Origin: Methanomicrobia archaeon
Lineage (GTDB): Archaea; Methanobacteriota_B; Thermococci; Methanofastidiosales; NM3
DNA: 64,000 nucleotides
Direction of reading: 5' to 3'
NCBI GenBank assembly: GCA_030603445.1
Contig: JAUVXU010000004.1
Location: forward strand, 42,656-106,655
In this document: positions 11,048-64,000 of the stretch, piece by piece
Layout: each line of letters opens with the position of its first letter
How positions within the stretch are numbered: the first letter of the stretch is position 1
The notes under the pieces: generated by a model
Database searches by the model: none
Told to the model about the DNA's origin: nothing
The model's input: only the letters and a program-made list of their open reading frames with translations
Position numbers and translations under genes: made by a program

Positions 11048-12163
11048 ATGGAAGAAAAAATCACTGTATCAATAATCAAGGCAGATGTAGGCGGATGGCC
11101 AGGACACGCACTAGTCCATCCGGAACTTATGTCTGTTGCCCGAAAAGAACTAGAAAAAGTAAAGGGCAAGCTACTTATTGACTATCACGTGGCCAACTGC
11201 GGTGACGACCTCGAGCTCATAATGACGCACCGCAGGGGTACTGATGACGAGGAGGTCCACCGACTTGCATGGGAAACATTTGAGACGGCCACTAAAAAAG
11301 CAGAAGAATTAAAATTATACGGTGCAGGACAGGACCTGTTATCTGATGCATTTTCCGGCAACATAAAAGGGATGGGGCCAGGAGTTGCAGAACTTGAGTT
11401 TATCGAGAGAAGGGGCGAACCCATCGTGGCTTTTCTCATGGACAAGACCGAGCCAGGGGCATTTAATCTCCCTATATTCAAAATGTTTGGCGACCCTTTC
11501 AATACCATCGGCCTCGTGATAGACCCAAGTGCCCATGCAGGATTCAGATTCGAGGTATGGGACATCTATGAGCACAAGCGAGTCTTTATGGACTGCCCAG
11601 AGGAGATGTACTCACTTCTTGCATTAATAGGGGCAAAATCCCGTTATGTCATAAAGAGGATATTCCCAAAACCGGGAGGAAGTCTCCCAGACAACGAAGC
11701 AGTTGCGGCCATCTCAACTGAGAAGCTCTATGAGATAGCTGGCGATTATGTTGGAAAGGATGATCCCGTGGCACTCGTACGTGCACAATCCGGTCTGCCG
11801 GCTCTTGGTGAGGTCCTAGAACCATTCTCATTCCCGCACCTTGTTTCAGGGTGGATGAGGGGAAGCCACAACGGACCGATAATGCCTGTTGCACAGCGTA
11901 ATGCCGTATGCACAAGATTCGACGGGCCGCCACGCGTGGTAGCTCTTGGATTCCAGATTGCAAACGGCAGGCTTGTAGGGCCAGTAGACCTATTTGACGA
12001 CCCGGGATTTGACAATGCCAGGAGTTTAGCAAAGGATGCAGCAGACTACATGCGCCGACACGGCCCATTTGAACCCCACAGGCTTCCGCTCTCTGAGATG
12101 GAATACACCACCATGCCAAAAGTGCTTGGAAAACTAAAAAATAGGTTCAAGTCTGTAAAGTAG
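11048..12163 (+). CDS. fbp: fructose-1,6-bisphosphate aldolase/phosphatase (class V FBPase, archaeal type)
   Basis: N-terminal 'ITVSIIKADVGGWPGH' is the hallmark of the bifunctional FBP aldolase/phosphatase family. 371 aa. Confidence 0.85.
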   Translation: MEEKITVSIIKADVGGWPGHALVHPELMSVARKELEKVKGKLLIDYHVANCGDDLELIMTHRRGTDDEEVHRLAWETFETATKKAEELKLYGAGQDLLSDAFSGNIKGMGPGVAELEFIERRGEPIVAFLMDKTEPGAFNLPIFKMFGDPFNTIGLVIDPSAHAGFRFEVWDIYEHKRVFMDCPEEMYSLLALIGAKSRYVIKRIFPKPGGSLPDNEAVAAISTEKLYEIAGDYVGKDDPVALVRAQSGLPALGEVLEPFSFPHLVSGWMRGSHNGPIMPVAQRNAVCTRFDGPPRVVALGFQIANGRLVGPVDLFDDPGFDNARSLAKDAADYMRRHGPFEPHRLPLSEMEYTTMPKVLGKLKNRFKSVK

Positions 12164-13503: not shown

Positions 13504-15042
13504 TCAGACGCATTCGCATCCTAATGCTTCGCTTATGTTCTCCATTAGTTTTATTGCCTTTACAAGCTCGCCGTTAGAGTAGATCGGGTTTGAAAGAGAT
13601 GCTGCGTTTGCCATGTGTTCTTGTGCTTGCCCAATCATTTCCTGGACGTCTTCAGGTATCTCTTCGGGGAGGTTTTCAGCAATGCAGCTCCATATTGTGT
13701 TTGCCTGTATCAGATGATAGTTCATTAATGGTTTGAATGTCATTACCGAGACACCTGCACTTCTCACCTCATCAACGCCCATGTCAAATCCCCCTCTCAA
13801 GGGCCTTATGTCTCCTTCCATGTCTGTGTAGACCCCTGCATCCGTGCCAGTATCGATGCACGGGGAGCCTTTCTGAAGATGGACATCTCCAGTCGCCGCA
13901 TCAACGAACAGAGGATCAGCGTCGATGTTGCCTGTCCCAATGTAACCTCCCTCTACGTCGGAGTAAGTGACATTTGGAGAAGAGTAGTAGTCGTAAAATT
14001 CATTAGATAAATCCCCCCACAGGATGCAGTTGGTGACTATTGGCGATGAGTAGTCGTTGAACATTCCGCCGCCGGCATTAGCTGAATTGCCGGTGAAAGT
14101 GCAGTTGGTGAGGGTTGGGGAGGACATGGCAGCGTTGTACATTCCGCCGCCGGTGTAGGCTAAATTATCGCTGAAGATGCAGTTGGTGAGGGTTGGGGAG
14201 GAGTCCCCGTTGTACATTCCGCCGCCGTTGTAGGCTGAATTGCCGCTGAAGATGCAGTTGGTGAGGGTTGGGGAAGATTCGTAGTTGCGCATTCCGCCGC
14301 CTTCATAAATGGCTGTATTGCCTGTGAAGGTGCAGTTGGTGAGGGTTGTGGATGAGTCATCGTCGTTGCGCATTCCGCCGCCTTCATCAAAGGCTTCATT
14401 GCCTGTGAAGGTGCAGTTGGTGAGGGTTGTGGATGAGTCATCGTCATTGTACATTCCGCCGCCATCGTCATAAGCTGTATTACTGCTGAAAGTGCAGTTG
14501 GTGAGGGTTGTGGATGAGTCATTGTCATTGTACATTCCGCCGCCATCTTCATAGGCTTCATTGCCTGTGAAGGTGCAGTTGGTGAGGGTTGGGGAGGAGT
14601 AGTTGTTGTTGTACATTCCGCCGCCATGACCATCAGCCTCATTACCGCTGAAAGTGCAGTTAGTGATTGTTGGAGATGAATTGTCGTTGTACATTCCGCC
14701 GCCGTCGCTGATAGTGACTGATCCGTTTGTGATTTTAAAGCCGCTTAGCACCGTCGTGCTGCCTACGCCAGTAGCTGTCACCACAGTACCGCTTCCGCCG
14801 CCGTCAATTGTAGTTACGGACGCGCCATCTCCTATAAGCGCCACTCCGTCCTCAAGCTCGATGTTCTCATAGTACGTTCCTGCATGCACATAGATTGTAT
14901 CTCCACTAGAAGCTGCATCTATTGCATCTTGGATGGAACCACCTGAATATACATGGTAGTCTACTGCACTCACAGTATTGACTGCAGATAGTAAAGAGAA
15001 CAAAAACATGATTGCTATAATTAGAACTTTAATTTTTTTCAT
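13504..15042 (-). CDS. secreted right-handed beta-helix protein with about 10 PMP-type repeats (FxxN...GGGMYN)
   Basis: N-terminal signal peptide/TM 'KKIKVLIIAIMFLFSLLSAVNTVSA'. Ten or more 26-27-aa repeats of 'TLTNCTFTGNEAxxxGGGMYNDxDSS' (Chlam_PMP / PbH1-like). C-terminal non-repeat domain carries a CxC motif. Confidence 0.7.
   Translation of the reverse strand: MKKIKVLIIAIMFLFSLLSAVNTVSAVDYHVYSGGSIQDAIDAASSGDTIYVHAGTYYENIELEDGVALIGDGASVTTIDGGGSGTVVTATGVGSTTVLSGFKITNGSVTISDGGGMYNDNSSPTITNCTFSGNEADGHGGGMYNNNYSSPTLTNCTFTGNEAYEDGGGMYNDNDSSTTLTNCTFSSNTAYDDGGGMYNDDDSSTTLTNCTFTGNEAFDEGGGMRNDDDSSTTLTNCTFTGNTAIYEGGGMRNYESSPTLTNCIFSGNSAYNGGGMYNGDSSPTLTNCIFSDNLAYTGGGMYNAAMSSPTLTNCTFTGNSANAGGGMFNDYSSPIVTNCILWGDLSNEFYDYYSSPNVTYSDVEGGYIGTGNIDADPLFVDAATGDVHLQKGSPCIDTGTDAGVYTDMEGDIRPLRGGFDMGVDEVRSAGVSVMTFKPLMNYHLIQANTIWSCIAENLPEEIPEDVQEMIGQAQEHMANAASLSNPIYSNGELVKAIKLMENISEALGCECV
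14050..14760. repeat. about 9 tandem ~81-bp DNA repeats encoding the beta-helix rungs
   Basis: Motif 'cattccgccgcc' recurs at ~14066, 14146, 14216, 14290, 14372, 14450, 14527, 14614 and 14692 with 74-87 bp spacing. Flanks are near-identical, e.g. 'gtgcagttggtgagggttg'. Confidence 0.8.
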
Positions 15043-51910: not shown

Positions 51911-52600
51911 ATGTATATGAAGAATCTAACATCTTACCAGGAAGATATGATACGTGTTCTAGTCGAATCACGGGCACTGTCATTTGGCGAGTTCACACTT
52001 AAGAGCGGACGCATCTCACCATATTTTTTCAATATGGGAAGAGCAATATCCAATGGGATGTATCTTGCGACCGTGTCGCGATGCTACTGCGAGAAGCTTA
52101 TAGACTGCGTAGGCAATGATTTCACTTTCATCTTTGGTCCCGCATACAAGGGCATCCCGCTTGCATGCGCAATAGCGCACACTCTCTGGAGGGAGTTTGA
52201 AGTGGCTGTCAGGTGGGGATATGACAGAAAGGAGGAAAAGACATATGGTGACACCCGCGATGCCGCACTTGTAGGGAAGCTTTGCAGCAAGGACAAGGTG
52301 ATCATGGTGGATGATGTCATCACCACCGGCGACACCAAGATAGAGTCATGGAAAAAGCTTCTTGCGTTAGATAGTACATTAATCCCAAAAGGCGTTCTTG
52401 TTGCCGTTGATCGTGAGGAAAAGGACAAAAATGGCAAAATGCCAGTAAAAATACTAAAAGAAGCCGGGCTGGATTTTTTCTCCATACTAAAGGCTTCTGT
52501 TATCTTCGACTATTTGCACGATGTGAAAATAGACGGAAAGATCATCGTGAACGATGACCTATACGAACGATACCAAGACTACAGGCGCCGCTACAATTAG
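51911..52600 (+). CDS. pyrE: orotate phosphoribosyltransferase
   Basis: PRPP-binding motif 'VIMVDDVITTGDT'. 229 aa. Confidence 0.75.
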   Translation: MYMKNLTSYQEDMIRVLVESRALSFGEFTLKSGRISPYFFNMGRAISNGMYLATVSRCYCEKLIDCVGNDFTFIFGPAYKGIPLACAIAHTLWREFEVAVRWGYDRKEEKTYGDTRDAALVGKLCSKDKVIMVDDVITTGDTKIESWKKLLALDSTLIPKGVLVAVDREEKDKNGKMPVKILKEAGLDFFSILKASVIFDYLHDVKIDGKIIVNDDLYERYQDYRRRYN

Positions 52601-54072
52601 AATCTAAAGACATCAAGTATTCCGTAAAGGAAGCTTACTATGCCTTGAGTACCCCCATTGATACGGTGCTGTATCACTGATGACACCTGGCCCCTCATAG
52701 TATCGATTGGCCATGTTACCTTCCATTCCTGGGGTTCTTTAAAGACTGCTAGGTAACCTGACATCCTGAAGTAAAACACCAAGAGACGATACATTGGGAG
52801 TAGCAGCACATACTGGAAGCTATCGCTTATTGCGCCCCGCGTGTCCTTATCCGAGATAGTGTATGCTGCTAGTGTCTGTGCTACATCAAAAATCACATAA
52901 AACACGAACAGCACTACGAAAAACAGCGCTATTACGCTTTGTGAGTATCCAAATAGCGGGAATAGCAGCAATAGGAATGTCCATATGATACGAGGGAATG
53001 CAAGCGTATGGTCTATCATTAGCATCGAAGGAAGCCCAAACCTTCCAATAGTTCCATACTTATTAGAACCTATCATGTTCTTGTGTACGCCTGCGACCTC
53101 TAGTTGCCCCCGCCTCCAGCGTACGCGCTGGGCATATAAGGCCCCAGTTTCAATGACCGGTTCCACCCATACCTTTGCATCAGGGGCGAATCCGACCCCA
53201 ATGCCATGCTGATGGAGATCAAGGGAGATGTCAAAATCCTCTGACACTGTTAGATCGGAGTAAATGTGCGTCTTCTCCAAGGCTTCTTTTCTAAACGCAC
53301 TAAAAGCGCCTGAAAGCATATACTCCGAGTTCACGGCGCTTTGGTAATGGCGGCCAAGCCTAAATGAGTTCAAGTATTCAAGGAACTGGCTCTTTGCAAG
53401 AATAGATTCAAAAAACGACATCTTCTTCTCTATAGGGTTGCCGTCCTCATCCAAGATAAGGTCTCCTTCCTCATCGCGCGCCTCTAATAAGTGCCAGTTT
53501 ACCTCTATAACACCGCATGCGGCCCCTTTATCGGGATTTTCCAGCAAGTATACGACCATTTTGCGAATTGCGTTTAAGTCAAGCACGACATCTGAGTCTA
53601 TTGTCATTACTATATCGCCGTGCGCGTGGCGAATTCCCGTATTTAAGGCATGCGCCTTTCCCCTATTTGACCCATTGGAAAACAGGCGAATTGAACCTTT
53701 AAACTCTGATACTGACATGAAGTCGCCGTTGATCTTTACCTTGTTGTTGCCGTTGCCCTCTATGTTTGCAAGCGTTATGTCTGATGTAAGGTCTATTGAA
53801 CCATCATCAACCACGAGTATCTCCATCTTGTGCTGCGGATAGTCTTGCAGCTTTAGGGAGTTGAGGCAGCGCTCAATTATCTTCTCCTCATTATAAGCAG
53901 GGATGATAATAGACACGTTTGGCATGTCGTCGTCTGTATATTTGTCAGTTGATGTCTTGTTCTTTGAGAATATCACGGCGCCTACCCTAAGCATTGCGCC
54001 AACACCATCAAGGGCAAGAGGTATGAGGATCCATACACCCCATATCAAAAGCGAACGTATTAGAGGTGACAT
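52597..54072 (-). CDS. processive family-2 glycosyltransferase (cellulose/chitin/PNAG-synthase-like), membrane-embedded
   Basis: 'VSIIIPAYNEE', 'VDDGS', 'DSD' and 'QRVRWRRGQLE' (QxxRW). N- and C-terminal TM helices. Confidence 0.8.
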   Translation of the reverse strand: MSPLIRSLLIWGVWILIPLALDGVGAMLRVGAVIFSKNKTSTDKYTDDDMPNVSIIIPAYNEEKIIERCLNSLKLQDYPQHKMEILVVDDGSIDLTSDITLANIEGNGNNKVKINGDFMSVSEFKGSIRLFSNGSNRGKAHALNTGIRHAHGDIVMTIDSDVVLDLNAIRKMVVYLLENPDKGAACGVIEVNWHLLEARDEEGDLILDEDGNPIEKKMSFFESILAKSQFLEYLNSFRLGRHYQSAVNSEYMLSGAFSAFRKEALEKTHIYSDLTVSEDFDISLDLHQHGIGVGFAPDAKVWVEPVIETGALYAQRVRWRRGQLEVAGVHKNMIGSNKYGTIGRFGLPSMLMIDHTLAFPRIIWTFLLLLFPLFGYSQSVIALFFVVLFVFYVIFDVAQTLAAYTISDKDTRGAISDSFQYVLLLPMYRLLVFYFRMSGYLAVFKEPQEWKVTWPIDTMRGQVSSVIQHRINGGTQGIVSFLYGILDVFRF

Positions 54073-54684
54073 TTATTCTCCCCCCTTTCCTCGGGCAATT
54101 GCATCATTTACCACTTTCTTGCCCACTATGTTAATAGTTGGTTTAGTTATTATATACCAATATATGAACAGGACGAACACGAAAAACACCATTCTAGATA
54201 TCACAGAATGAGCCAGGTATGTGTACTCCTCTCCATAATTATGCGTGACACCAGCAATTATGCAAAGACGAATTATGTTTGCAACATACGTCAGTGCTAC
54301 ACCTAGCACTGCTGAAAAGACCTTCCTCTTGGCAACAAATCCCACATAGAAGAATATCAGCGAGAAGATAACGGAAAGCTCCAGAAGCGCCGAGCACTCT
54401 ATAGAGCATATCAGCACAGCCCATCCTGTAGGTGATGGGATAAATAGCTGATTGCTTTGGACATATCCATCAAATCCGAACTGTTGCAATAGGAAAACGG
54501 TGTGATTTAGCTCTATGTTGGCCAGTTTCGTATCATATCCTAAATTCATAAAAGCAAGGATGATAAAAAGTGTGAGTCCAAATGATCCTACTAGGTAGTA
54601 CAAAAGCCACTGCCTCTTTGAGTGAAGATATACAGTGACCAGCCCCCAAATAATCAGTAGTACAAACAGGAACATCCAGTTCAT
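54073..54684 (-). CDS. archaeosortase/exosortase-family membrane protein (short form)
   Basis: 203 aa polytopic. Candidate catalytic Cys in 'LICSIECSALLE'. Conserved Asn/Arg 'VANIIRLCIIAG' (NxxR). Stop abuts the GT2 start and its start overlaps the upstream gene by 4 nt. Confidence 0.5.
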   Translation of the reverse strand: MNWMFLFVLLIIWGLVTVYLHSKRQWLLYYLVGSFGLTLFIILAFMNLGYDTKLANIELNHTVFLLQQFGFDGYVQSNQLFIPSPTGWAVLICSIECSALLELSVIFSLIFFYVGFVAKRKVFSAVLGVALTYVANIIRLCIIAGVTHNYGEEYTYLAHSVISRMVFFVFVLFIYWYIITKPTINIVGKKVVNDAIARGKGGE

Positions 54685-55829
54685 TTGCCATCACATCCTT
54701 TTAGATTCAACACGCCATTCTTTCTCATGGAGTATCCTACTATTAACAGCAGCATGGCCAATAGCCCGATAAATCCAAGCGTGCCTAGGGAAGGGATGTA
54801 GTAAAAAGAAGCACATGACGGTCCTGCGATTATATGTGAAGGCTCGCCTGAATTGACATTTGTCTTTTGCCAGTACACACAGACCCGAAAGTCCTTTCGT
54901 AGATCGTCAGGTGTAAGGTAGAACGAGAAGTACTCGGTTGTGGTATCTCCTGGCTTCATAGTCTGTACGCCGACATTCTTGTACCTATGGTAAGGATATC
55001 CATCGTCGGTAGGATACGTTGCAACAAAATTGTTATTCTCATCATACACGTACAAGAACAGGCTGGTGTTTGACTGGGTGTTTGCCGCCGCCAGGTCGAC
55101 GCGCACAGTAATTCCGCCTGTATCTGTGTTGACAGATACTGAAGTGAAGATGACGTCGCTTTGTGTGCCTGTTGCAAATGAGTAAGTAGGACTTGTGTAA
55201 CTGCCTGTGCTATCTGTTGCAACAACGTACCATGAATATGTCGTATTGCTCTCCAGATAGCTCCATACCGTAGTAGCGGTTCCACTGCCGGTCACGGTAT
55301 CGGTGCCAATAGGTGTGTTGCCTTCCAAGTTGTAGAAGTTCACAGTGACAGTTCCTGTACCTCCTGCAATGTCTATACTAAGTGTAGTACTAGGCCCTAT
55401 TCCAGAAACTCCCGATGGCGCGGGATTTGAAAAGTCTATGCCTGGGGCACGGGTTGTGAAAGACCAGGTACCACTCGTAAGAAGAACTGTATTTGGATCG
55501 GCGTTATCTGCTACTGTGACGTACCAGGAGTAAGAGGTTGAGGGGCTTCTTCCTGGCCACTGCACGGTCGCAACGTCTACTGAATTTTGCTTTGTGGTGA
55601 CTACAGCAGAACCTAATAATGTTGATTCGCCATAAAATTTTACTAGATACTCCTTATTGTTAGCTCCATCCACTTCCACCACAAGATCCGGTGTTAAGCT
55701 GACATCTGTAGCACCATTTGCCGGTGATGGGTTCAAAACCTCAACTGTTGGTACGGCCGCTACCATCGCAATCCCAAAAGATCCAAGTAACAAACCGACT
55801 ATAATTATTACAAACACTTTATACTTCAC
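54681..55829 (-). CDS. secreted Ig-like/fibronectin-like repeat surface protein with C-terminal TM anchor + basic tail (putative sortase target)
   Basis: Signal peptide. Repeated 'SYSWYV(T/V)' beta-sandwich units rich in T/S/G. C-terminus 'YIPSLGTLGFIGLLAMLLLIVGYSMRKN'. Confidence 0.6.
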   Translation of the reverse strand: MKYKVFVIIIVGLLLGSFGIAMVAAVPTVEVLNPSPANGATDVSLTPDLVVEVDGANNKEYLVKFYGESTLLGSAVVTTKQNSVDVATVQWPGRSPSTSYSWYVTVADNADPNTVLLTSGTWSFTTRAPGIDFSNPAPSGVSGIGPSTTLSIDIAGGTGTVTVNFYNLEGNTPIGTDTVTGSGTATTVWSYLESNTTYSWYVVATDSTGSYTSPTYSFATGTQSDVIFTSVSVNTDTGGITVRVDLAAANTQSNTSLFLYVYDENNNFVATYPTDDGYPYHRYKNVGVQTMKPGDTTTEYFSFYLTPDDLRKDFRVCVYWQKTNVNSGEPSHIIAGPSCASFYYIPSLGTLGFIGLLAMLLLIVGYSMRKNGVLNLKGCDGK

Positions 55830-57505: not shown

Positions 57506-57583
57506 GGGCTCTTGGTCTAGCTTGGTTATGACGTCGCCTTCACACGGCGGAGGTCCTGGGTTCGATTCCCAGAGAGCCCACCA
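57506..57583 (+). tRNA. tRNA-Val (anticodon CAC), genomically encoded CCA
   Basis: Manual fold. Acceptor GGGCTCT/AGAGCCC. D-arm GTCT..TGAC. Anticodon stem TCGCC/GGCGG with loop TTCACAC. T-arm CTGGG-TTCGATT-CCCAG. Discriminator A followed by CCA. Confidence 0.9.
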
Positions 57584-57668: not shown

Positions 57669-59078
57669 TTACTTTCCAACGCCTTTCTTCTCCATCTTTC
57701 CCCATCCCCTAGAACCAAACGCATATTCTATTGTAGCACGAAAGCGCCACCATGTCTGTAATTGGCGATAACCGATATTTTCCAAAAAAGCGGCGCAAAA
57801 AAGGTGCAGGAGATGCGACGTCTTCGGGTATTTCTTAAATGACAGCTCCTCCAGTATAACAGATGTGATAGAAAGCACCATCCCGTAAAGAACTGCAACA
57901 GTCAGAAACATGATGGCAAAAGGCAAGCTAACAATACCAAACAATGCTGACAAAATAAACACAATGTACCCGCTAAATTCGACAAACGGCCCGAGCATCT
58001 CAAATATCACAAAGTAGGGGAATGCAAAAAATCCCACCCAGCCATAATCGGTGTTTAGGAACATATCTTTATGTAGCATTATTGATTGTATCGTTCCCTT
58101 CTGCCAACGAACGCGTTGGCTCCTAAGCACTTTCAACGTTTCTGGTGCCTCTGTCCAGCACACCGGATCTGGGACAAATGTGATGCGTGTATTTGGGTTT
58201 TGACGCCTGAGTATCTTATGCATCCTAACCACTAGTTCCATATCCTCCCCGATACAGCCTGCCCTATATCCGCCCACCTTCAGAACAGCATCTTTTGAGA
58301 AGCACCCAAACGCGCCGGAAATAATAAGCATGGCATTAACCGCATCAAATCCTGTCCTGCCGAACAAAAATGCCCTGAGGTACTCCACGACCTGGAACTT
58401 TCCTATAAATTTTTTTGGTGGGGCAATTTCTAGTACTCTGCCCTGTTCCACTTTGCACCCATTTGCTATACGGACAATTCCTCCTACTGCAATGACATTT
58501 TCGTCCTCTACGAAAGGCCGGACCACCTTTAAAAGACAGTCGCGCTCGAGGATGGAATCCGCATCTATGACACATATCAATGGATCCTTAGATGCGTTTA
58601 TGCCTGTGTTTATGGCATCTGCCTTTCCTCCATTCTCCTTATCTATTACCAAAAGAGACGGATGCTCTTTTGATCTGTAAAATCCCCTCACAGGCATTGT
58701 ATCAATACTATCCACCATGCCATACGGGACCCGCTTCATGGAGAAGTGGGATATTAAATTATTTAAGGTATCATCTTTTGAACCGTCGTTGACGACTATT
58801 ACGTGAAAATCAGGGTACTCAAGCTGTAAAAAAGCGCTGGTGCTATTAATTATGCTATTGCCTTCATTATATGCTGGCACTATAACAGAGACAGCTTTTG
58901 TATTTCCATAACGAAACAGGTCCTTTATATCTATGTAAGAGACCTTTGCCGAATATTTTCTTATTGTCTTAAATGAAACAAAGCATAGGACAAAATAAAT
59001 CGTGCCTATTGTAAGCAGATATGTAAGCGCAAAATAATTGTAGATGTATAAAGCTCCTATTATGCTTATATTAACCAC
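57669..59078 (-). CDS. processive family-2 glycosyltransferase (PgaC/cellulose-synthase-like) with N- and C-terminal TM helices
   Basis: 'VSVIVPAYNEG', 'VVNDGS', 'DAD' and 'QRVRWQKGTIQ' (QxxRW). Confidence 0.8.
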   Translation of the reverse strand: MVNISIIGALYIYNYFALTYLLTIGTIYFVLCFVSFKTIRKYSAKVSYIDIKDLFRYGNTKAVSVIVPAYNEGNSIINSTSAFLQLEYPDFHVIVVNDGSKDDTLNNLISHFSMKRVPYGMVDSIDTMPVRGFYRSKEHPSLLVIDKENGGKADAINTGINASKDPLICVIDADSILERDCLLKVVRPFVEDENVIAVGGIVRIANGCKVEQGRVLEIAPPKKFIGKFQVVEYLRAFLFGRTGFDAVNAMLIISGAFGCFSKDAVLKVGGYRAGCIGEDMELVVRMHKILRRQNPNTRITFVPDPVCWTEAPETLKVLRSQRVRWQKGTIQSIMLHKDMFLNTDYGWVGFFAFPYFVIFEMLGPFVEFSGYIVFILSALFGIVSLPFAIMFLTVAVLYGMVLSITSVILEELSFKKYPKTSHLLHLFCAAFLENIGYRQLQTWWRFRATIEYAFGSRGWGKMEKKGVGK

Positions 59079-60147
59079 CTACCTTCATGTCTGTGAGCAG
59101 GATTCTTGTAACAGAGGCCGCCTTTTTGTTCTTTGAATGTTGTGCAATTACTGAAAGTGCCTCCCTTCCTTTCCTTGACAAGCTAAACAGCGCCTCTGCT
59201 GCACGGTAGCGCACCCACCAGTTTTCGTCGCCAAGATATACTACAAGCTCTTCCTCTACTGAATCATCACCAATCCTTCCCAAGGCCCATATTGCAAGGC
59301 TGCGAACACGCCAGTCTGCATCATTCATGCATTCCCTTAAAGATGGCATGGCGCCCAAATACTCTATTTTACCCACGGCCCTTATACAATTAATGCGGAC
59401 ATCATACCCTGGTGTCGCATCCAGGATGCATAATATCTCCTCGCCTGCAGGATAGTATCTGTAGTGCCCTAGCGCGTCCACGATAAGTGAGATGGAAAAC
59501 GCATCTGGCTCCCCTTTCAGATACCATAACAACGGCTGGCAAGCGTCAGTGCCAAACTCGAACAATATCGATAGCAAAAGATCCCTGCTTGGTTTTTTTC
59601 TGATGCGAAACTGCCCCAGGATTATTCCAAGCGTATCTATGGCCCCGATTTTCGCTAAGCTAAGGGCGCAGTTAAAATATACCCCTTCGTCCTTATCCTC
59701 CAAGCCCCGTATTAGGTGTTCTTTCGCCTGGCGGGCCCTTACCAACCCGATAAAGAAAGCGGACTCGCTACGGACCTGTTCGTCTCCGTGTACAAGCTGA
59801 TCTATTAAACATGAAAAAAGGTCTGTATTAGTGACTAGTGCAGATAACTTCTCAAAATCATCTCCCTTCAGCGCGAGCAGATAGCTTTTCAAAAAGTGCT
59901 GGAAGTAAGCATAACGGGCCCTTGGAACGAGAGCCATGATCTCTTGGGTGGTTTTTTCACCTTCAAGGTACTGAAAAACCATCTTCTCCCATCCCGCGTA
60001 AAGCTTAAACTGCTTTTTTTTAGAACTGTTGCTTACGAATCGCAAGAAGAAGCAGTACAGTATCAACATCCCTACAACAAACAAGAGCGCAAGTACTGCC
60101 ATTGTGGTGGTCCAAAGAGCCCCTTGATTGAAGAACTTCCCTATCAT
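59071..60147 (-). CDS. HEAT/PBS-lyase repeat protein with N-terminal TM anchor
   Basis: N-terminal TM 'ALWTTTMAVLALLFVVGMLILYCFFL'. Repeated 'VRxxAxxALGxIG' HEAT-like units. Overlaps the GT2 start by 8 nt. Confidence 0.6.
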   Translation of the reverse strand: MIGKFFNQGALWTTTMAVLALLFVVGMLILYCFFLRFVSNSSKKKQFKLYAGWEKMVFQYLEGEKTTQEIMALVPRARYAYFQHFLKSYLLALKGDDFEKLSALVTNTDLFSCLIDQLVHGDEQVRSESAFFIGLVRARQAKEHLIRGLEDKDEGVYFNCALSLAKIGAIDTLGIILGQFRIRKKPSRDLLLSILFEFGTDACQPLLWYLKGEPDAFSISLIVDALGHYRYYPAGEEILCILDATPGYDVRINCIRAVGKIEYLGAMPSLRECMNDADWRVRSLAIWALGRIGDDSVEEELVVYLGDENWWVRYRAAEALFSLSRKGREALSVIAQHSKNKKAASVTRILLTDMKVGG

Positions 60148-60184
60148 TTTACCCCTTCTTTAGCGATTATTTGTTCTTGAAAAT

Positions 60185-60583
60185 TTACTGCAAAAACTGC
60201 CATGAGATAGCCTTATTCACTCTTGCCACCAGTTCAGAAGGGGCGAATGGTTTTGTCAAGTAGTCTGTTGCCCCATCCCCCAAGCCTTTCACGACGTCGC
60301 TCTCCTGGCCCTTGGCAGAAAGTATTATTGTGGGAATAGATACTGTTTTTGGATTTGCCCTTATATCCCTTAAAATACTGATGCCATCTCGCAAAGGCAT
60401 CATTACATCTAACAAAACGATGTCTGGGATCGTCTCAATGATAGCCTCTATAACACCCTCCCCATCAGGGAAGTGGGTGACCTTAAATTCCTCCCGTTCC
60501 AGCTTGAATTTGACCAAACGAGCAATATCCAGGTCATCTTCTGCATAGATTATCGTCTTTTGTACCTTATTACCTTTGCTCAT
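60185..60583 (-). CDS. stand-alone CheY-like response regulator receiver
   Basis: 'IIYAEDD', phospho-acceptor 'VLLDVMMP', 'SAKG' and 'YLTKPF'. No output domain. Confidence 0.85.
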   Translation of the reverse strand: MSKGNKVQKTIIYAEDDLDIARLVKFKLEREEFKVTHFPDGEGVIEAIIETIPDIVLLDVMMPLRDGISILRDIRANPKTVSIPTIILSAKGQESDVVKGLGDGATDYLTKPFAPSELVARVNKAISWQFLQ

Positions 60584-60639
60584 GATATATTCTCCTTGAA
60601 TTGAGTAGATTATAAACTTTTTCTTGTTTAATGATATTA

Positions 60640-61869
60640 TTATTCATTTTTCATGTTTGGACGCCCTAGTGGCAACCTAATTGTGAATTTTGAACCTTTC
60701 TCAAATTCGCTACTAACATCTATTGTTCCGTTGTGTGCAGCGACTATCTCTTTTACAATAGCTAAGCCAAGGCCTGTTCCCCCTGCATCCCTGACGACCT
60801 TGTTGTCTGCACGGAAAAACTTTGAAAAAAGCTTTTTCTGGTCACTTTCGCTCATGCCAACACCAGTATCCTCCAAAGATATGATTGCGTTATCCCCTTC
60901 TGTATCAAGAATCAGATATATGGAACCTGACTCGGTGTACTTAATAGAATTTGTAAACAGATTCCATAGAACCTGACTTATTCTATCTCCATCGACCCAC
61001 GCCAGTATATCGGGCTTGATGTTCTTGTGAAAGGCAAGCCCTTTCTTCTTGATAAGCAGTTCTGTTCCCTTTGCAGTTGCCTCAACTATTTCTGAAAGTG
61101 ATATATGTGTCAAATTCATAGTAAGCCTTTTTGACTCCATCTTTTGAACATCTAAGAACTCATTTATGAGTGATGCAAGTCTATCGGTGTTTCTCTTGAC
61201 TATTCCTAAAAAATCACGTTGTATATCGTTTATTTCCCCTGTATCCTCATCCAGGATAATATCGATATAACCCTTAATAGACGTCAACGGCGTCCTGAGC
61301 TCATGGGAAACTGTCGAAACAAGATCGGACTTTATCTTGTCCACGCTCTTTAGCTCCTCAAGCATTATATCGATCTTTGCCTTTTCGTTTTTTAGGTCAT
61401 CAAATAATGCCAACAGTTCGTCATTTTTTCTCTTAAGCTCACTTACCATCTCTGCTCTTGATAAACGAATTAACCTTTCCCTCTCCAAGGATATGAATTC
61501 CTCGGTTGGGATGAATTTTACTGGGGGATACTTAAAAGCATTGACATTTAGCATATTTCCATTAGTACTAGATATGAAAATATCATCAAAAAACGCCTCT
61601 GTCCATTTTATATCCGGATCCTCTGTGCGGCCTTTAAACAAAATATCTAGTCCAAAGCCCTTTTCCCTCTCATCAAAGCCAACTGCAACGCTTGCTGCAT
61701 TGCCGTTAGAGTACATTTGGCGGCTTAATTCAGAAGTTGCTGTAGCAAGCTTTGTGGCACCGATTGTGTCAAATCCCACATCCTCTGCCAACATGCGGAC
61801 CTTGTTCCTGGCCTCAACGATAGAAGAAGCCTCTTTGATAGAGATCTCTCCAAGATGCATCTTGTTCAT
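60640..61869 (-). CDS. histidine kinase (N-terminal RsbT/RsbW-like partner-binding domain + coiled coil + HisKA + HATPase_c)
   Basis: H-box 'SHELRTPL'. N box 'NLFTNSIKYT'. G boxes 'DTGVGM' and 'GTGLGLA'. N-terminal ~100 aa resembles the RsbT N-terminal region. Start overlaps the PP2C stop by 4 nt. Confidence 0.75.
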   Translation of the reverse strand: MNKMHLGEISIKEASSIVEARNKVRMLAEDVGFDTIGATKLATATSELSRQMYSNGNAASVAVGFDEREKGFGLDILFKGRTEDPDIKWTEAFFDDIFISSTNGNMLNVNAFKYPPVKFIPTEEFISLERERLIRLSRAEMVSELKRKNDELLALFDDLKNEKAKIDIMLEELKSVDKIKSDLVSTVSHELRTPLTSIKGYIDIILDEDTGEINDIQRDFLGIVKRNTDRLASLINEFLDVQKMESKRLTMNLTHISLSEIVEATAKGTELLIKKKGLAFHKNIKPDILAWVDGDRISQVLWNLFTNSIKYTESGSIYLILDTEGDNAIISLEDTGVGMSESDQKKLFSKFFRADNKVVRDAGGTGLGLAIVKEIVAAHNGTIDVSSEFEKGSKFTIRLPLGRPNMKNE

Positions 61870-62411
61870 CTATATCTCACCGCCATGCAAGCCGCGTCAT
61901 CGCTCTTCTTTCCAAACATGTGAATTATTTTCTTAGCCATGGTCTTGGCGTCGTCTGTTAAAATCTCCGGATAGTCTCCCAGTTCGAAATGCTCCTTTAC
62001 ACCATCCGTATACAGCACGACAACATCTGCGCGAGAAAACGGCCTTTCCATCGCCTTTAATGTTGGAAGAACGTACCCAACAACGCCAGGCAGTGATATA
62101 AACCTCATAGTGTCTGGGCCAAACACCCTTGCAGTTATATTGCCTACTCCAACGTATCTTAGCTCCATTAATTGCAAATCAAGAAGACACAATCCTACAA
62201 CTGCCCCTCTAGAACCTCTTATCTCCTCATGCAATCCCCTCATTATCTTGATAATGTCTTTTTGATGGTTCTCATCCAGATACTCTTTGCATGTGATTGC
62301 GATTTCGTGTGCTTTTTTTCCATGTCCAAGCACATCGACTAGCCCCATGAACACTTTTTTGTCAAACGCCTTGATAACTCCGATGTCTCCACATTCGCTA
62401 TCCTTTATCAA
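61866..62411 (-). CDS. RsbX-like PP2C/SpoIIE-family phosphatase
   Basis: 'CGD', 'VDVLGHG', 'RGAVVG', 'VGVGNI' and 'YTDGV' align with B. subtilis RsbX ('CGD', 'ADGLGSG', 'RGATAS', 'VGNV', 'HTDGL') as recalled. 181 aa. Confidence 0.65.
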   Translation of the reverse strand: MIKDSECGDIGVIKAFDKKVFMGLVDVLGHGKKAHEIAITCKEYLDENHQKDIIKIMRGLHEEIRGSRGAVVGLCLLDLQLMELRYVGVGNITARVFGPDTMRFISLPGVVGYVLPTLKAMERPFSRADVVVLYTDGVKEHFELGDYPEILTDDAKTMAKKIIHMFGKKSDDAACMAVRYR

Positions 62412-62451
62412 GGGCCTTGTGGCAATATAAAAATCAGATGTACCGTTTTTC

Positions 62452-62925
62452 CTACAACCACCGCCTCACTGTAATCTTCGTGCCTTTTGTCCTGGATGGG
62501 TCCATCAAGAATTCGTGCATCAGGCGCTTTATTCCTGGCAGACCAACGCCTAGTCCTTTGGATGTGCTATAATTCTCTTTTAGCGCAAGATTTATGTCTT
62601 TTATTCCTGGGCCGTTGTCCTCTGCAACAACTTCAATACCTTTTTTTCCCCTCTTTATAATAGGCTTTAGGATAAGTTCTCCTTCTCCCGCATAACGGAC
62701 TATATTTGTTCCAAGCTCGGAAACGGCAGTTGATATCATGCACTGCTCATTTGGTTTGAATCCAATGGACTTTGCAATTATCCTTGATTCCATGATCGTT
62801 TTTGAAACATCTACTATGCTTCGTACACTAATCCTCTTCTCCGCTAGCTTCTTCTCCGCTATCAGGCTCGCCCTCCTGCTCCTCTTCAAGATCATCTTCA
62901 GGCAACTCATCAAAATTCTCGACAA
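62452..62925 (-). CDS. RsbT-like GHKL serine kinase (stressosome switch kinase)
   Basis: 'ISTAVSELGTNIVRYAGEGEL...KRGKKGIEVVAEDNGPGIKDI...STSKGLGVGLPGIKRLMHEF' is near-colinear with B. subtilis RsbT as recalled. True start is uncertain: the ORF open from 62925 overlaps the upstream STAS gene by 98 nt, so a later or non-ATG start is possible. Confidence 0.75.
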   Translation of the reverse strand: MSRILMSCLKMILKRSRRASLIAEKKLAEKRISVRSIVDVSKTIMESRIIAKSIGFKPNEQCMISTAVSELGTNIVRYAGEGELILKPIIKRGKKGIEVVAEDNGPGIKDINLALKENYSTSKGLGVGLPGIKRLMHEFLMDPSRTKGTKITVRRWL

Positions 62926-63298
62926 GCTCTGTTGCCGGAGCTACCTTCTGAATGCCGTCTTCAACTGTTGTAGATATGAGGATATCTTCAAAATCGATTC
63001 CTAGGTCTACGATGGATGCTACCACCTCCGGCCTGAACCCCGTAATTACTGTCTTTGCACCTAACAAGGATGCCATCCTTGCAGTGTCAAAAGCAGTTTT
63101 GCACAAAAAAGAGTCCATTACTGTAACACCGGAAAAATCTATTACAACGCCCTTCACATCTGTTGCTTCTATCCTCTTCAAAATCTCCTTTTGGATATGC
63201 AACATTGCCTCATCGTAAAGCTCAATCTGGATAGGAACTATGAGGCATCCGCTTGTGATATGCATTTCCACGTTAAACAGGGTATTTTCATCATCCAT
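62828..63298 (-). CDS. RsbS-like STAS-domain protein with unusual acidic C-terminal tail
   Basis: 'GVVIDFSGVTVMDSFLCK...LLGAKTVITGFRPEVVASIVDLGIDF' matches RsbS, including the phosphorylatable Ser in 'MDSF'. C-terminal 'EDDLEEEQEGEPDSGEEASGEED' tail is not present in RsbS as I recall it. Confidence 0.75.
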   Translation of the reverse strand: MDDENTLFNVEMHITSGCLIVPIQIELYDEAMLHIQKEILKRIEATDVKGVVIDFSGVTVMDSFLCKTAFDTARMASLLGAKTVITGFRPEVVASIVDLGIDFEDILISTTVEDGIQKVAPATELVENFDELPEDDLEEEQEGEPDSGEEASGEED

Positions 63299-63320
63299 GA
63301 AACAATGGCTCCCTTGAATA

Positions 63321-64000
63321 TCACTTGCCTTTTCTTGATATGTCCTTGTCTTCTTTTACAGCAAGCCCCAATTCTTCAAACGAGAGCAGCAAAGCATCCT
63401 TTAAAGTCGTTGCAGTGTTTAACCCGGAAAAATCAATTCCAAGATGCACTATTGTCTGAGCTATCTCTGATGACATGCCGGATAGTATGCAATCTGCACC
63501 TACGAGTTTGGTTGCTTTAGTTATCTTTATTATATGATTTGCCACAGCCGTGTCTACACTTGCTACACCAGATATGTCCAGTATGCACATCTTTGACTCA
63601 GTCTCGGTGATCTTTTTTAAACAGGCTTCCATGACATTTTGTGCACGTACTGAATCTATTATCCCGACAAGAGGCAGCATTATTATGTTTTCCCAAACTG
63701 TTATGACTGGTGTTGACATCTCTGACATTGCCTGTATTTGCGCTGATATGGTATCTTCGTTTCTTTTTACATATTCATCAACTATGCAAAAATTTAATTC
63801 AAAGATCAGCTCGCTCATTGCTACTGCTTCTTTAATTAAAACATCGCGGTCCTGATCTAATAATCCCTCGTCAAGGATAGCGACAATAGCATGTTTTAGC
63901 TCAAAGATGCAAGATGCTGTTTGTGAAGGCGTAAACCCACCCTGAATGTATGAGATTGCTATTTCTTTGACAGCCTCAATGAGTGGCTCATACTCCGGGT
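63321..64000 (-). CDS. RsbR-like stressosome scaffold protein (C-terminal STAS; N-terminal sensor domain runs off the window end)
   Basis: 'EMSTPVITVWENIIMLPLVGIIDSVRAQNVMEACL...ILDISGVASVDTAVANHII...LVGADCILSGMSSEIAQTIVHLGIDFS' is highly similar to the B. subtilis RsbRA C-terminus. The reading frame stays open upstream of M at 63818 to the window edge. Confidence 0.75.
   Translation of the reverse strand, partial: PEYEPLIEAVKEIAISYIQGGFTPSQTASCIFELKHAIVAILDEGLLDQDRDVLIKEAVAMSELIFELNFCIVDEYVKRNEDTISAQIQAMSEMSTPVITVWENIIMLPLVGIIDSVRAQNVMEACLKKITETESKMCILDISGVASVDTAVANHIIKITKATKLVGADCILSGMSSEIAQTIVHLGIDFSGLNTATTLKDALLLSFEELGLAVKEDKDISRKGK

Follow-up and report, generated by a model that had tools for sequence, protein, structure and literature searches.

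The stretch of DNA analysed here (hereafter the window) comprises 64,000 nucleotides of an archaeal contig, JAUVXU010000004.1, and at its far end it carries eight minus-strand genes that lie head to tail between position 57669 and a point past 64000. According to the open reading frame (ORF) calls, these genes encode, in order, RsbR-, RsbS-, RsbT- and RsbX-like proteins of the bacterial stressosome, a histidine kinase, a receiver-only response regulator, a membrane HEAT-repeat protein and a family-2 glycosyltransferase (GT2). A sequence-only reading of the window had listed eight co-directional genes in this order, and every one of them is present on the minus strand. It had also described the genes as joined by overlaps of 4–8 nt or by short gaps. 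The intergenic spacings from RsbR to GT2 are +22, −68, +40, −4, +56, +37 and −8 nt, so that the description fits the RsbX/kinase (−4) and HEAT/GT2 (−8) junctions and the short gaps, but not rsbS and rsbT, which overlap by at least 68 nt. Across positions 62828–62925 one frame of the shared DNA specifies the acidic tail at the C-terminus of RsbS, while a second specifies the basic N-terminus of RsbT. A Shine–Dalgarno-like site stands upstream of each of three genes, those for RsbS, the receiver and the HEAT protein. The features are as follows (profile or database E-values in brackets).

63321..64000 (−): RsbR-like sensor/scaffold, 5′-truncated at the window edge, 225 of ~299 codons present
62828..63298 (−): RsbS-like single STAS protein, 156 aa (STAS 1.2e-12; B. 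subtilis RsbS 6qcm_A 2.9e-21)
62452..62895 (−): RsbT-like GHKL Ser/Thr kinase, ~147 aa, alternative starts at 62910 and 62925 (HATPase_c_2 2.9e-8)
61866..62411 (−): RsbX-like PP2C feedback phosphatase, 181 aa (SpoIIE/PP2C 3.5e-8)
60640..61869 (−): histidine kinase, whole gene, 409 aa (HisKA 1.9e-18 and HATPase_c 1.9e-29)
61474..61869 (−): N-terminal RsbW/SpoIIAB/RsbT-like pseudokinase domain of the kinase, aa 1–132, the proposed docking domain
60640..61473 (−): coiled-coil linker, dimerization/phosphotransfer (DHp, HisKA) domain and catalytic ATP-binding domain of the kinase, with the H-box SHELRTP at 61288–61308
60185..60583 (−): receiver-only response regulator, 132 aa (Response_reg 3.8e-25)
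59071..60147 (−): single-pass membrane HEAT-repeat protein, 358 aa (HEAT_2 8e-25)
57669..59078 (−): PgaC/IcaA-like, putatively processive GT2, 469 aa (Glyco_tranf_2_3 4e-25)
57506–57583 (+): tRNA-Val(CAC), convergent with the GT2 gene

The Rsb proteins

The rsbR reading frame is open through position 63998 to the end of the window, and the start of the protein therefore lies beyond it; the missing N-terminus was read from orthologous metagenome contigs that are 89–92% identical. Within the window RsbR consists of a partial match to the Pfam domain RsbRD_N (9.6e-5, the last 40 domain positions), a linker helix and a STAS domain (2.8e-15 to 5.5e-15). Its orthologues on the metagenome contigs, ~90% identical, are 299 aa long, and the copy in metagenome locus L001 contains RsbRD_N (7e-15) together with STAS. 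Thus, the N-terminal sensor that the sequence-only reading had placed across the window edge is RsbRD_N, as recovered from the orthologous contigs instead of the window itself. When RsbR was compared with all PDB sequences, the best match was RsbR of the Vibrio vulnificus stressosome (7o0i_B, 5e-45, ~155 aligned residues), and the RsbR proteins of Listeria and Bacillus in the PDB matched at ~1e-26 (7b0u_A, 1.3e-26). An alignment to Listeria RsbR shows that both threonines phosphorylatable by RsbT are kept, in the motifs VDT (63543–63557) and IAQTIV (63447–63464); they are Thr150 and Thr182 when the partial ORF is numbered. In the bacterial versions of the Rsb–kinase module, and in L004, the slot of RsbR is filled by a STAS-only protein of 135–142 aa with no sensor domain (L004, 554–961; L008, 2243–2671; L009, 6031–6450).

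Ser63, the phosphorylatable serine of RsbS, lies in the motif MDSF (63107–63118) and aligns with Ser59 of B. subtilis RsbS. The protein ends in an acidic tail of ~40 aa; in an alignment, a tail of this kind (35–55 residues) was common to all kinase-linked RsbS homologues and missing from RsbS of B. subtilis and V. vulnificus. In RsbT the conserved boxes are intact (N box SELGTN, G1 EDNGPGI, G2 GLGVGLPG), and database homologues with 45–57% identity are named ‘serine/threonine-protein kinase RsbT’ by JGI. A comparison with PDB sequences gave no match to any solved RsbT, so the assignment rests on motifs, context and the names given by the source; 48% identity to what we take to be the B. subtilis RsbT sequence is used as a lead only. 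RsbX matched the solved RsbX proteins of Moorella (3zt9_A, 1.2e-16) and B. subtilis (3w40_A, 4.6e-11), and its metal-binding aspartate motifs are kept.

Profile searches recovered all of the domain assignments expected for the cluster (STAS, HATPase_c_2, SpoIIE, HATPase_c, HEAT_2 and Glyco_tranf_2_3). The claim that the Rsb proteins resemble the Bacillus stressosome components is borne out by matches to solved proteins for RsbR, RsbS and RsbX and by motifs and names for RsbT. The cluster had further been said to contain no sigma factor, RsbV or RsbW; none is present, and RsbU is likewise absent from it. In stressosomes, RsbR and RsbS assemble into a pseudo-icosahedral cage of ~1.5–1.8 MDa that sequesters RsbT. 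At the sequence level, the defining features of a stressosome RsbRST(X) module were found in RsbR, RsbS, RsbT and RsbX alike, and judged in this way the four genes are an rsbRSTX module. Such modules are widespread in bacteria ‘and even some archaeal species’ (PMC9237108; also PMC8942246, PMC10014275).

The histidine kinase and its N-terminal domain

The kinase has a standard HisKA/HATPase core with the motifs SHELRTP, NLFTNS, DTGVGM and GGTGLGL. Together with the receiver it provides a full set of two-component residues, namely the H-box histidine and the N, G1 and G2 boxes in the kinase and the acidic pocket, phospho-acceptor aspartate, serine and lysine in the receiver. Pfam and hydropathy analysis showed no transmembrane (TM) or hydrophobic segment and no PAS or GAF domain, as expected of a soluble protein.

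The N-terminal domain of the kinase (~130 residues) is well conserved among full-length homologues and returned nothing meaningful in Pfam or PDB profile searches; its identity came only from profile–profile comparison and structure prediction. Compared in this way with the RsbT family, its first 72 columns matched with 88.8% probability (E 2.5e-6). An AlphaFold2 model built from 16 homologues had a mean predicted local distance difference test score (pLDDT) of 91, and its closest structural relatives were RsbW, UsfX and SpoIIAB. The domain thus has a GHKL fold of the anti-sigma-kinase subtype, but the boxes required for kinase activity are missing: the residue four past the N-box glutamate is Q, S, R, Y or I across homologues, and there is no DxGxG motif. 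Because the Mg-ATP-binding asparagine and the glycine boxes are not conserved, the domain is classed as a pseudokinase and not, enzymatically, as a member of the RsbW type.

Metagenomes were scanned for the N-domain with an alignment of six sequences. The N-domain kinase was found 3′ of RsbR–RsbS–RsbT, usually together with a PP2C gene, in loci L001–L004 and L010 (archaeal), in L006–L009 (bacterial) and in 19 further metagenome loci, this strict company being judged wherever upstream DNA exists. From these neighbourhoods we infer that the N-domain is the route by which the Rsb module reaches the kinase. Coupling could occur either through pairing with released RsbT or through binding of an unphosphorylated STAS protein. 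Most stressosome-linked outputs are without RsbU_N, and their coupling mechanism has been described as unresolved (Heinz et al., PMC9237108); the RsbW-like pseudokinase domain is put forward here as the possible coupling element of one class of them. In loci L110, L111, L113 and L114, a region of HD-GYP-like similarity (33–35%) lies 3′ of the pseudokinase domain and precedes the kinase core.

The receiver–HEAT–GT2 module and its junction with the Rsb genes

The receiver contains the acidic pocket EDD, the phospho-acceptor Asp59 (LLDVMMP), Ser89 and Lys111, and has no output domain. A receiver-only protein cannot bind DNA, which is counted here in favour of a link between receiver and synthase. 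In L001 the receiver gene (11287–11630) reads as two separate ORFs, of 85 and 29 aa, through either a frameshift or a mistake in assembly; L002 and L003 carry it uninterrupted.

In the HEAT protein a TM segment (aa 17–35) is followed by a lysine-rich stretch and then by the HEAT solenoid, which includes the motif D..WWVRYRAAEAL (59188–59220). As the lysine-rich stretch follows the lone TM segment, the positive-inside rule predicts that the solenoid is cytoplasmic, which would make the protein a PgaD- or PilZ-like regulatory partner and not a periplasmic one like BcsB. Of the suggestion that the HEAT protein acts like PgaD or BcsB, the regulatory, PgaD-like half therefore stands, and a BcsB-like role was rejected on the predicted topology. 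The GT2 has the features of a processive membrane enzyme, with the D, DxD, ED and QxxRW signatures (NDGS, DADS, GEDME and QRVRW), one N-terminal TM segment and a C-terminal TM bundle. It matches the C-terminal part of Chitin_synth_2 in Pfam (1.9e-14) and, weakly, BcsA and hyaluronan synthase in the PDB.

The homologues of the HEAT protein make up a well-defined family, ~350 aa in length, in which the motif D..WWVRYRAAEAL is invariant. When the HEAT alignment was run against a representative library, giant HEAT-repeat proteins dominated the results, which were uninformative on family size. A scan of one genome per GTDB species gave 468 confirmed relatives, whose hosts include Massilia, Noviherbaspirillum, Lysobacter, Methylobacter, Nitrospira, Acidobacteriota, Verrucomicrobiota, Nitrospinota and Christensenellaceae, and the best 80 of these 468 loci were tallied. 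A GT2 40–51% identical to that of the window lies downstream of the HEAT gene, on the same strand, in 74 of the 80; a receiver ~40% identical to the window receiver (E ~1e-25) lies at most 2.6 kb upstream in 53 of the 80, and 49 of the 80 have both near the HEAT gene. Other receivers in those loci are 25–34% identical to the window receiver. An outer-membrane protein with TPR repeats and a beta-barrel stands nearby in 44 of the 80 and a polysaccharide-deacetylase-like gene in nine of the 80; kinases, Hpt proteins and hybrid kinases often adjoin the bacterial HEAT–GT2 pair. The barrel is of the YaiO type, its match to PgaA being only 2.9e-4. A STAS or RsbT homologue near the HEAT gene was found in none of the 80.

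We named this arrangement REC–HEAT–GT2 (REC, receiver). The window locus conforms to its definition: a single-TM HEAT protein with the motif, a GT2 directly downstream and a receiver-only gene upstream, all on the same strand. The gene overlaps of 4–8 nt within the linkage were also counted in favour of a receiver–synthase connection. The conservation of these neighbourhoods suggests that REC–HEAT–GT2 is a conserved unit for synthase-dependent exopolysaccharide production, regulated by a phospho-receiver that belongs to the unit itself. Literature searches found no account of such a module or of an archaeal stressosome output, and annotated records (Mesorhizobium and Devosia plasmids) carry the genes under generic names only; the module thus appears to be uncharacterised. 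EmbRS of Rubrivivax was considered as a literature match and is unrelated. The plasmid loci of Mesorhizobium ciceri (L096, pMESCI01, 384387–392367) and Devosia (L095) have the order kinase, receiver, receiver, YaiO-type barrel, HEAT, GT2, Hpt, and represent a culturable system.

In bacteria the Rsb–pseudokinase–kinase modules are followed by receivers of another type (26–36% identity) and HD-GYP or GGDEF proteins of cyclic di-GMP (c-di-GMP) turnover, and also by hybrid kinases; HEAT–GT2 was found 3′ of an Rsb–kinase module only in loci of the Methanofastidiosia type. Because REC–HEAT–GT2 is conserved across many bacterial phyla but never with Rsb genes, the archaeal cluster appears to be two bacterial modules fused together. 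Two Methanofastidiosia lineages whose proteins are ~50% identical and whose flanks differ (L001 versus L010) retain the eight-gene order, indicating that the Rsb/synthase junction is old and selected. The nearest REC–HEAT–GT2 relatives outside the group (60%, 51% and 67% identity) are on short contigs from oil-associated samples binned as Atribacterota or ‘TA06’, with uncertain binning. No GGDEF, EAL or HD-GYP gene was found in the archaeal cluster, and we know of no c-di-GMP signalling in archaea. The natural reading is that the archaeon joined the sensor–kinase module straight to the synthase's own receiver, the c-di-GMP step being replaced. The sequence-only reading had proposed a kinase/receiver pair and a polysaccharide synthase as the output of the Rsb proteins, and both the linkage of the N-domain to Rsb genes and the pairing of receiver with HEAT–GT2 in bacteria agree with it at the level of sequence.

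The genes elsewhere in the window are archaeal, as had been proposed, and include Hef (helicase, ERCC4 and HhH), aRF1, a Hel308-type helicase with the archaeal domain 4 and a KRR1-type KH protein; a homologue of the kinase at 89% identity is labelled Candidatus Methanofastidiosia archaeon, a class of Methanobacteriota. A second polysaccharide-type cluster lies at 52597–55829 (−), its closest gene ending at 55829, about 3.6 kb from the HEAT-linked GT2. This cluster encodes a secreted 382-aa protein with a C-terminal TM segment and a basic, sorting-signal-like tail, an XrtG-like exosortase (78 bits, below the TIGR03110 cut-off; above the cut-off for the exosortase/archaeosortase signature) and a TIGR03111-like ‘XrtG-associated’ GT2 (274 bits against a cut-off of 364) that is 29% identical to the HEAT-linked one. 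It is conserved in L001 and L003, and is archaeal here, XrtG systems having been described for Gram-positive bacteria. At 13504–15042 (−) a 512-aa protein with a right-handed beta-helix and Chlamydia-PMP-type repeats is probably a surface protein, unrelated to the Rsb/GT2 locus. Comparison of the locus with PADLOC gave only generic HATPase and HEAT overlaps, and an anti-phage defence system was rejected.

Proposed pathway, alternatives and known systems

We favour, with moderate confidence, a model in which the locus is a complete signalling-to-effector pathway, composed of two bacterial-type modules and fixed in a Ca. Methanofastidiosia archaeon. The model builds on gene content, gene order, motifs, folds and conserved neighbourhoods; which proteins interact, whether the output is switched on or off, what the stimulus is and which polymer is made are all inferred. 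According to the model, RsbR (RsbRD_N and STAS) and RsbS would form a stressosome-type scaffold that holds RsbT. Upon a stimulus, RsbT would phosphorylate the serine of RsbS and the threonines of RsbR, and RsbX would reset both. The signal would then pass to the soluble histidine kinase, whose only input would be its catalytically dead RsbW/RsbT-like N-domain, docking either released RsbT (as a GHKL heterodimer) or an unphosphorylated STAS protein (as a partner switch). The kinase would phosphorylate the receiver-only protein at Asp59, and the phosphorylated receiver would bind the cytoplasmic HEAT solenoid of the partner subunit of the PgaC-like GT2, thereby toggling, at the protein level, the synthesis and extrusion of a beta-linked exopolysaccharide that may resemble poly-N-acetylglucosamine (PNAG). 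Direct phospho-control of the synthase would thus take the place in the archaeon of the c-di-GMP step of bacterial Rsb–kinase modules, which suggests that stress toggles slime or matrix production without transcriptional change.

Several observations weigh against this model. An interaction between RsbT and the kinase could not be shown in V. vulnificus (PMC9237108), a result compatible with partner switching, in which the N-domain would bind an unphosphorylated STAS protein (RsbS or RsbR) and be freed when RsbT phosphorylates it, with no large particle needed. This is a possibility we take seriously, if with some doubt. The relatives of the N-domain (RsbW, UsfX and SpoIIAB) have all been crystallised with STAS antagonists bound, members of the bacterial subfamily have the short ‘RsbR’ without a sensor, and the acidic tail distinguishes every kinase-linked RsbS from RsbS of B. 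subtilis and V. vulnificus. Yet the STAS domain of RsbR finds its match in V. vulnificus RsbR of a solved stressosome, RsbT is a fully intact kinase of its type, and a heterodimer of RsbT with the pseudokinase is equally plausible, GHKL anti-sigma kinases being dimers. Two further observations concern the link to the synthase. Adjacent receivers are lacking from 27 of the 80 bacterial HEAT–GT2 loci, mostly from Firmicutes, and a TATA-like TTTATAAT, with AAAAAG before it, lies at 60609–60616 in the 56 nt that separate the receiver gene from the kinase gene, 26–33 nt 5′ of the receiver ATG. This element may be an internal archaeal promoter (TFB recognition element, BRE, and TATA box) giving a near-leaderless transcript, in which case REC–HEAT–GT2 could also be transcribed separately, or it could be a chance match in AT-rich DNA; as a promoter it would leave the protein-level link intact but weaken the claim of a single operon. 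It is unlikely, in our view, that the Rsb and two-component genes are unlinked neighbours of HEAT–GT2, the receiver serving as a phosphate sink or regulating something else and the synthase being constitutive or otherwise controlled. Bacterial Rsb–kinase modules do precede other outputs (REC–HD-GYP, GGDEF and hybrid kinases), and some HEAT–GT2 pairs have no receiver; but the receiver of the archaeal locus is of the HEAT–GT2 type and not of the bacterial Rsb-locus type, the eight-gene order has persisted in two diverged lineages with different flanks, and the spacers of 37–56 nt carry Shine–Dalgarno-like sites.

The nature of the polymer is the other point on which observations run against the model. 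The best NCBIfam model for the GT2, PgaC_IcaA, scores 144 bits against an equivalog cut-off of 422 (its bacterial orthologue in L029 scores 156), and no deacetylase or other Pga component was found in the archaeal locus. Tested as a PgaCD/IcaAD synthase, the locus thus falls short in the equivalog score, the PgaD/IcaD partner, the PgaB/IcaB deacetylase and the PgaA porin, and a PNAG-like polymer is suggested only as possible, from a sub-threshold family match and the deacetylase-like genes near some of the bacterial relatives. The GT2 might instead be non-processive and act on a glycolipid or lipid carrier, for instance in S-layer glycosylation or on envelope lipids, which would be consistent with a score below every NCBIfam equivalog cut-off and with nucleotide-sugar genes a few kb upstream in L001 that could serve protein glycosylation. 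We consider this less likely still, since the enzyme combines QxxRW with a C-terminal TM bundle, its best matches are PgaC/IcaA, BcsA, hyaluronan synthase and the chitin-synthase C-terminal region, and its bacterial orthologues stand beside a TPR/beta-barrel outer-membrane protein and a deacetylase-like gene, a hallmark of synthase-dependent secretion. As regards origin, every relative outside the group is bacterial and the cluster is therefore likely to be of bacterial origin; the tRNA-Val gene, 85 nt from the GT2 stop codon, had been read as fitting horizontal acquisition. The adjacency is real, but support for an island is lacking: the tRNA 3′ end is present once in L001, the surroundings of the cluster contain no long direct repeats, the called genes include no integrase, the cluster has a GC content of 42.8% and the remainder of the window one of 44.6%, the GC content at third codon positions (GC3) is within the housekeeping-gene range, and the cluster in L010 has other flanks with no tRNA nearby. 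A tRNA-targeted integrative island was rejected for want of an att repeat, an integrase and a composition shift. Three independent metagenome assemblies (L001–L003) show the junctions of the cluster again, flanked on either side by archaeal genes, which makes mis-assembly unlikely. Recent arrival of the cluster as a genomic island, or the erroneous joining of a bacterial contig to archaeal sequence, thus appears highly improbable.

The favoured reading, a stressosome-to-synthase pathway, would involve two undescribed mechanisms, the c-di-GMP-independent gating of a synthase by a receiver and HEAT protein and the use of a pseudokinase as receiver of a stressosome output, and their joint occurrence is put forward tentatively. 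It had been suggested that a stressosome-gated polysaccharide synthase is new to archaea. The synthase output and its archaeal combination do appear undescribed, as do the RsbW-like pseudokinase coupling domain and the REC–HEAT–GT2 module; archaeal rsbRSTX genes and two-component stressosome outputs are already in the literature (PMC9237108, PMC10014275). Stressosome function has been studied in only a handful of bacteria. The pseudokinase domain, with its strict association with RsbRST(X), offers a concrete and directly testable binding hypothesis, which if true would explain how stressosomes that have no RsbU_N target transmit their signal. The archaeon would in that case have the first stressosome that controls matrix directly, with neither a transcription factor nor a second messenger, and for archaea this would be a rare fully specified post-translational route from a stress sensor to a surface polymer. 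REC–HEAT–GT2 further suggests that many bacteria, including culturable Massilia, Lysobacter, Mesorhizobium and Methylobacter and also Nitrospira, control a synthase-type exopolysaccharide by phosphorylation and not by c-di-GMP, which bears on biofilm and floc formation. The host belongs to an uncultured methanogen-related lineage of digesters and oil reservoirs, where aggregation matters.

The stressosome of B. subtilis and Listeria (RsbRA–RsbS–RsbT with RsbX, acting on sigma-B via RsbU–RsbV–RsbW) has the same four proteins in the order R–S–T(–X), and the archaeal locus shares with it the phosphorylatable serine of RsbS, both threonines of RsbR and an intact RsbT kinase. It differs in having no RsbU, RsbV, RsbW or sigma factor, in its histidine kinase output, in its archaeal host, in the position of RsbX directly after RsbT and in the acidic tail of RsbS. 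The N-domain shares the fold of RsbW and SpoIIAB; unlike these, it is catalytically dead, fused to a histidine kinase and found with no sigma factor. In Vibrio fischeri, partner switching between SypA (STAS) and SypE controls the Syp polysaccharide, and the archaeal locus resembles this system in that STAS phosphorylation would gate a polysaccharide.

Closer in layout is V. vulnificus, where genes for a sensor kinase and a response regulator likewise come after rsbRSTX (VvD1/VvD2; PMC9237108, PMC10014275) and whose RsbR gave the best PDB match to the archaeal STAS domain. Its RsbR sensor is a haem globin, however, whereas the archaeal one is RsbRD_N, and VvD1 is a large kinase with no recognised coupling domain whose output is thought to be c-di-GMP turnover, whereas the archaeal kinase is small, has the RsbW-like pseudokinase domain and would feed a synthase-tied receiver. 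The stressosome of Moorella thermoacetica controls a diguanylate cyclase, according to the account of Quin et al. 2012 given in PMC4976288. On that account the two systems are alike in a non-sigma output that would bear ultimately on biofilm polysaccharide, and Moorella RsbX is the best match to the archaeal PP2C; the Moorella output, in contrast, is c-di-GMP synthesis.

On the effector side, the GT2 resembles the synthases of PgaCD and IcaAD in size, TM layout and D,D,D,QxxRW signature and in having a membrane partner encoded next to it, and its bacterial relatives in REC–HEAT–GT2 loci are joined by genes for a TPR/barrel protein of the outer membrane and a deacetylase-like protein. The partner, however, is a 358-aa HEAT protein and not PgaD/IcaD, the porin of the bacterial relatives is of the YaiO type and not PgaA, and the proposed regulator is a phospho-receiver instead of c-di-GMP. 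A single-domain response regulator acting on a polysaccharide enzyme is known from Myxococcus xanthus, where phosphorylated EpsW activates the glycosyl-phosphate transferase EpsZ post-translationally (PMC12802240). EpsW/EpsZ belongs to a Wzx/Wzy pathway and involves direct binding to a monotopic phosphoglycosyl transferase, whereas the archaeal case would employ a synthase-dependent GT2 and a HEAT adaptor; it is nevertheless the nearest experimental precedent for the control proposed here.

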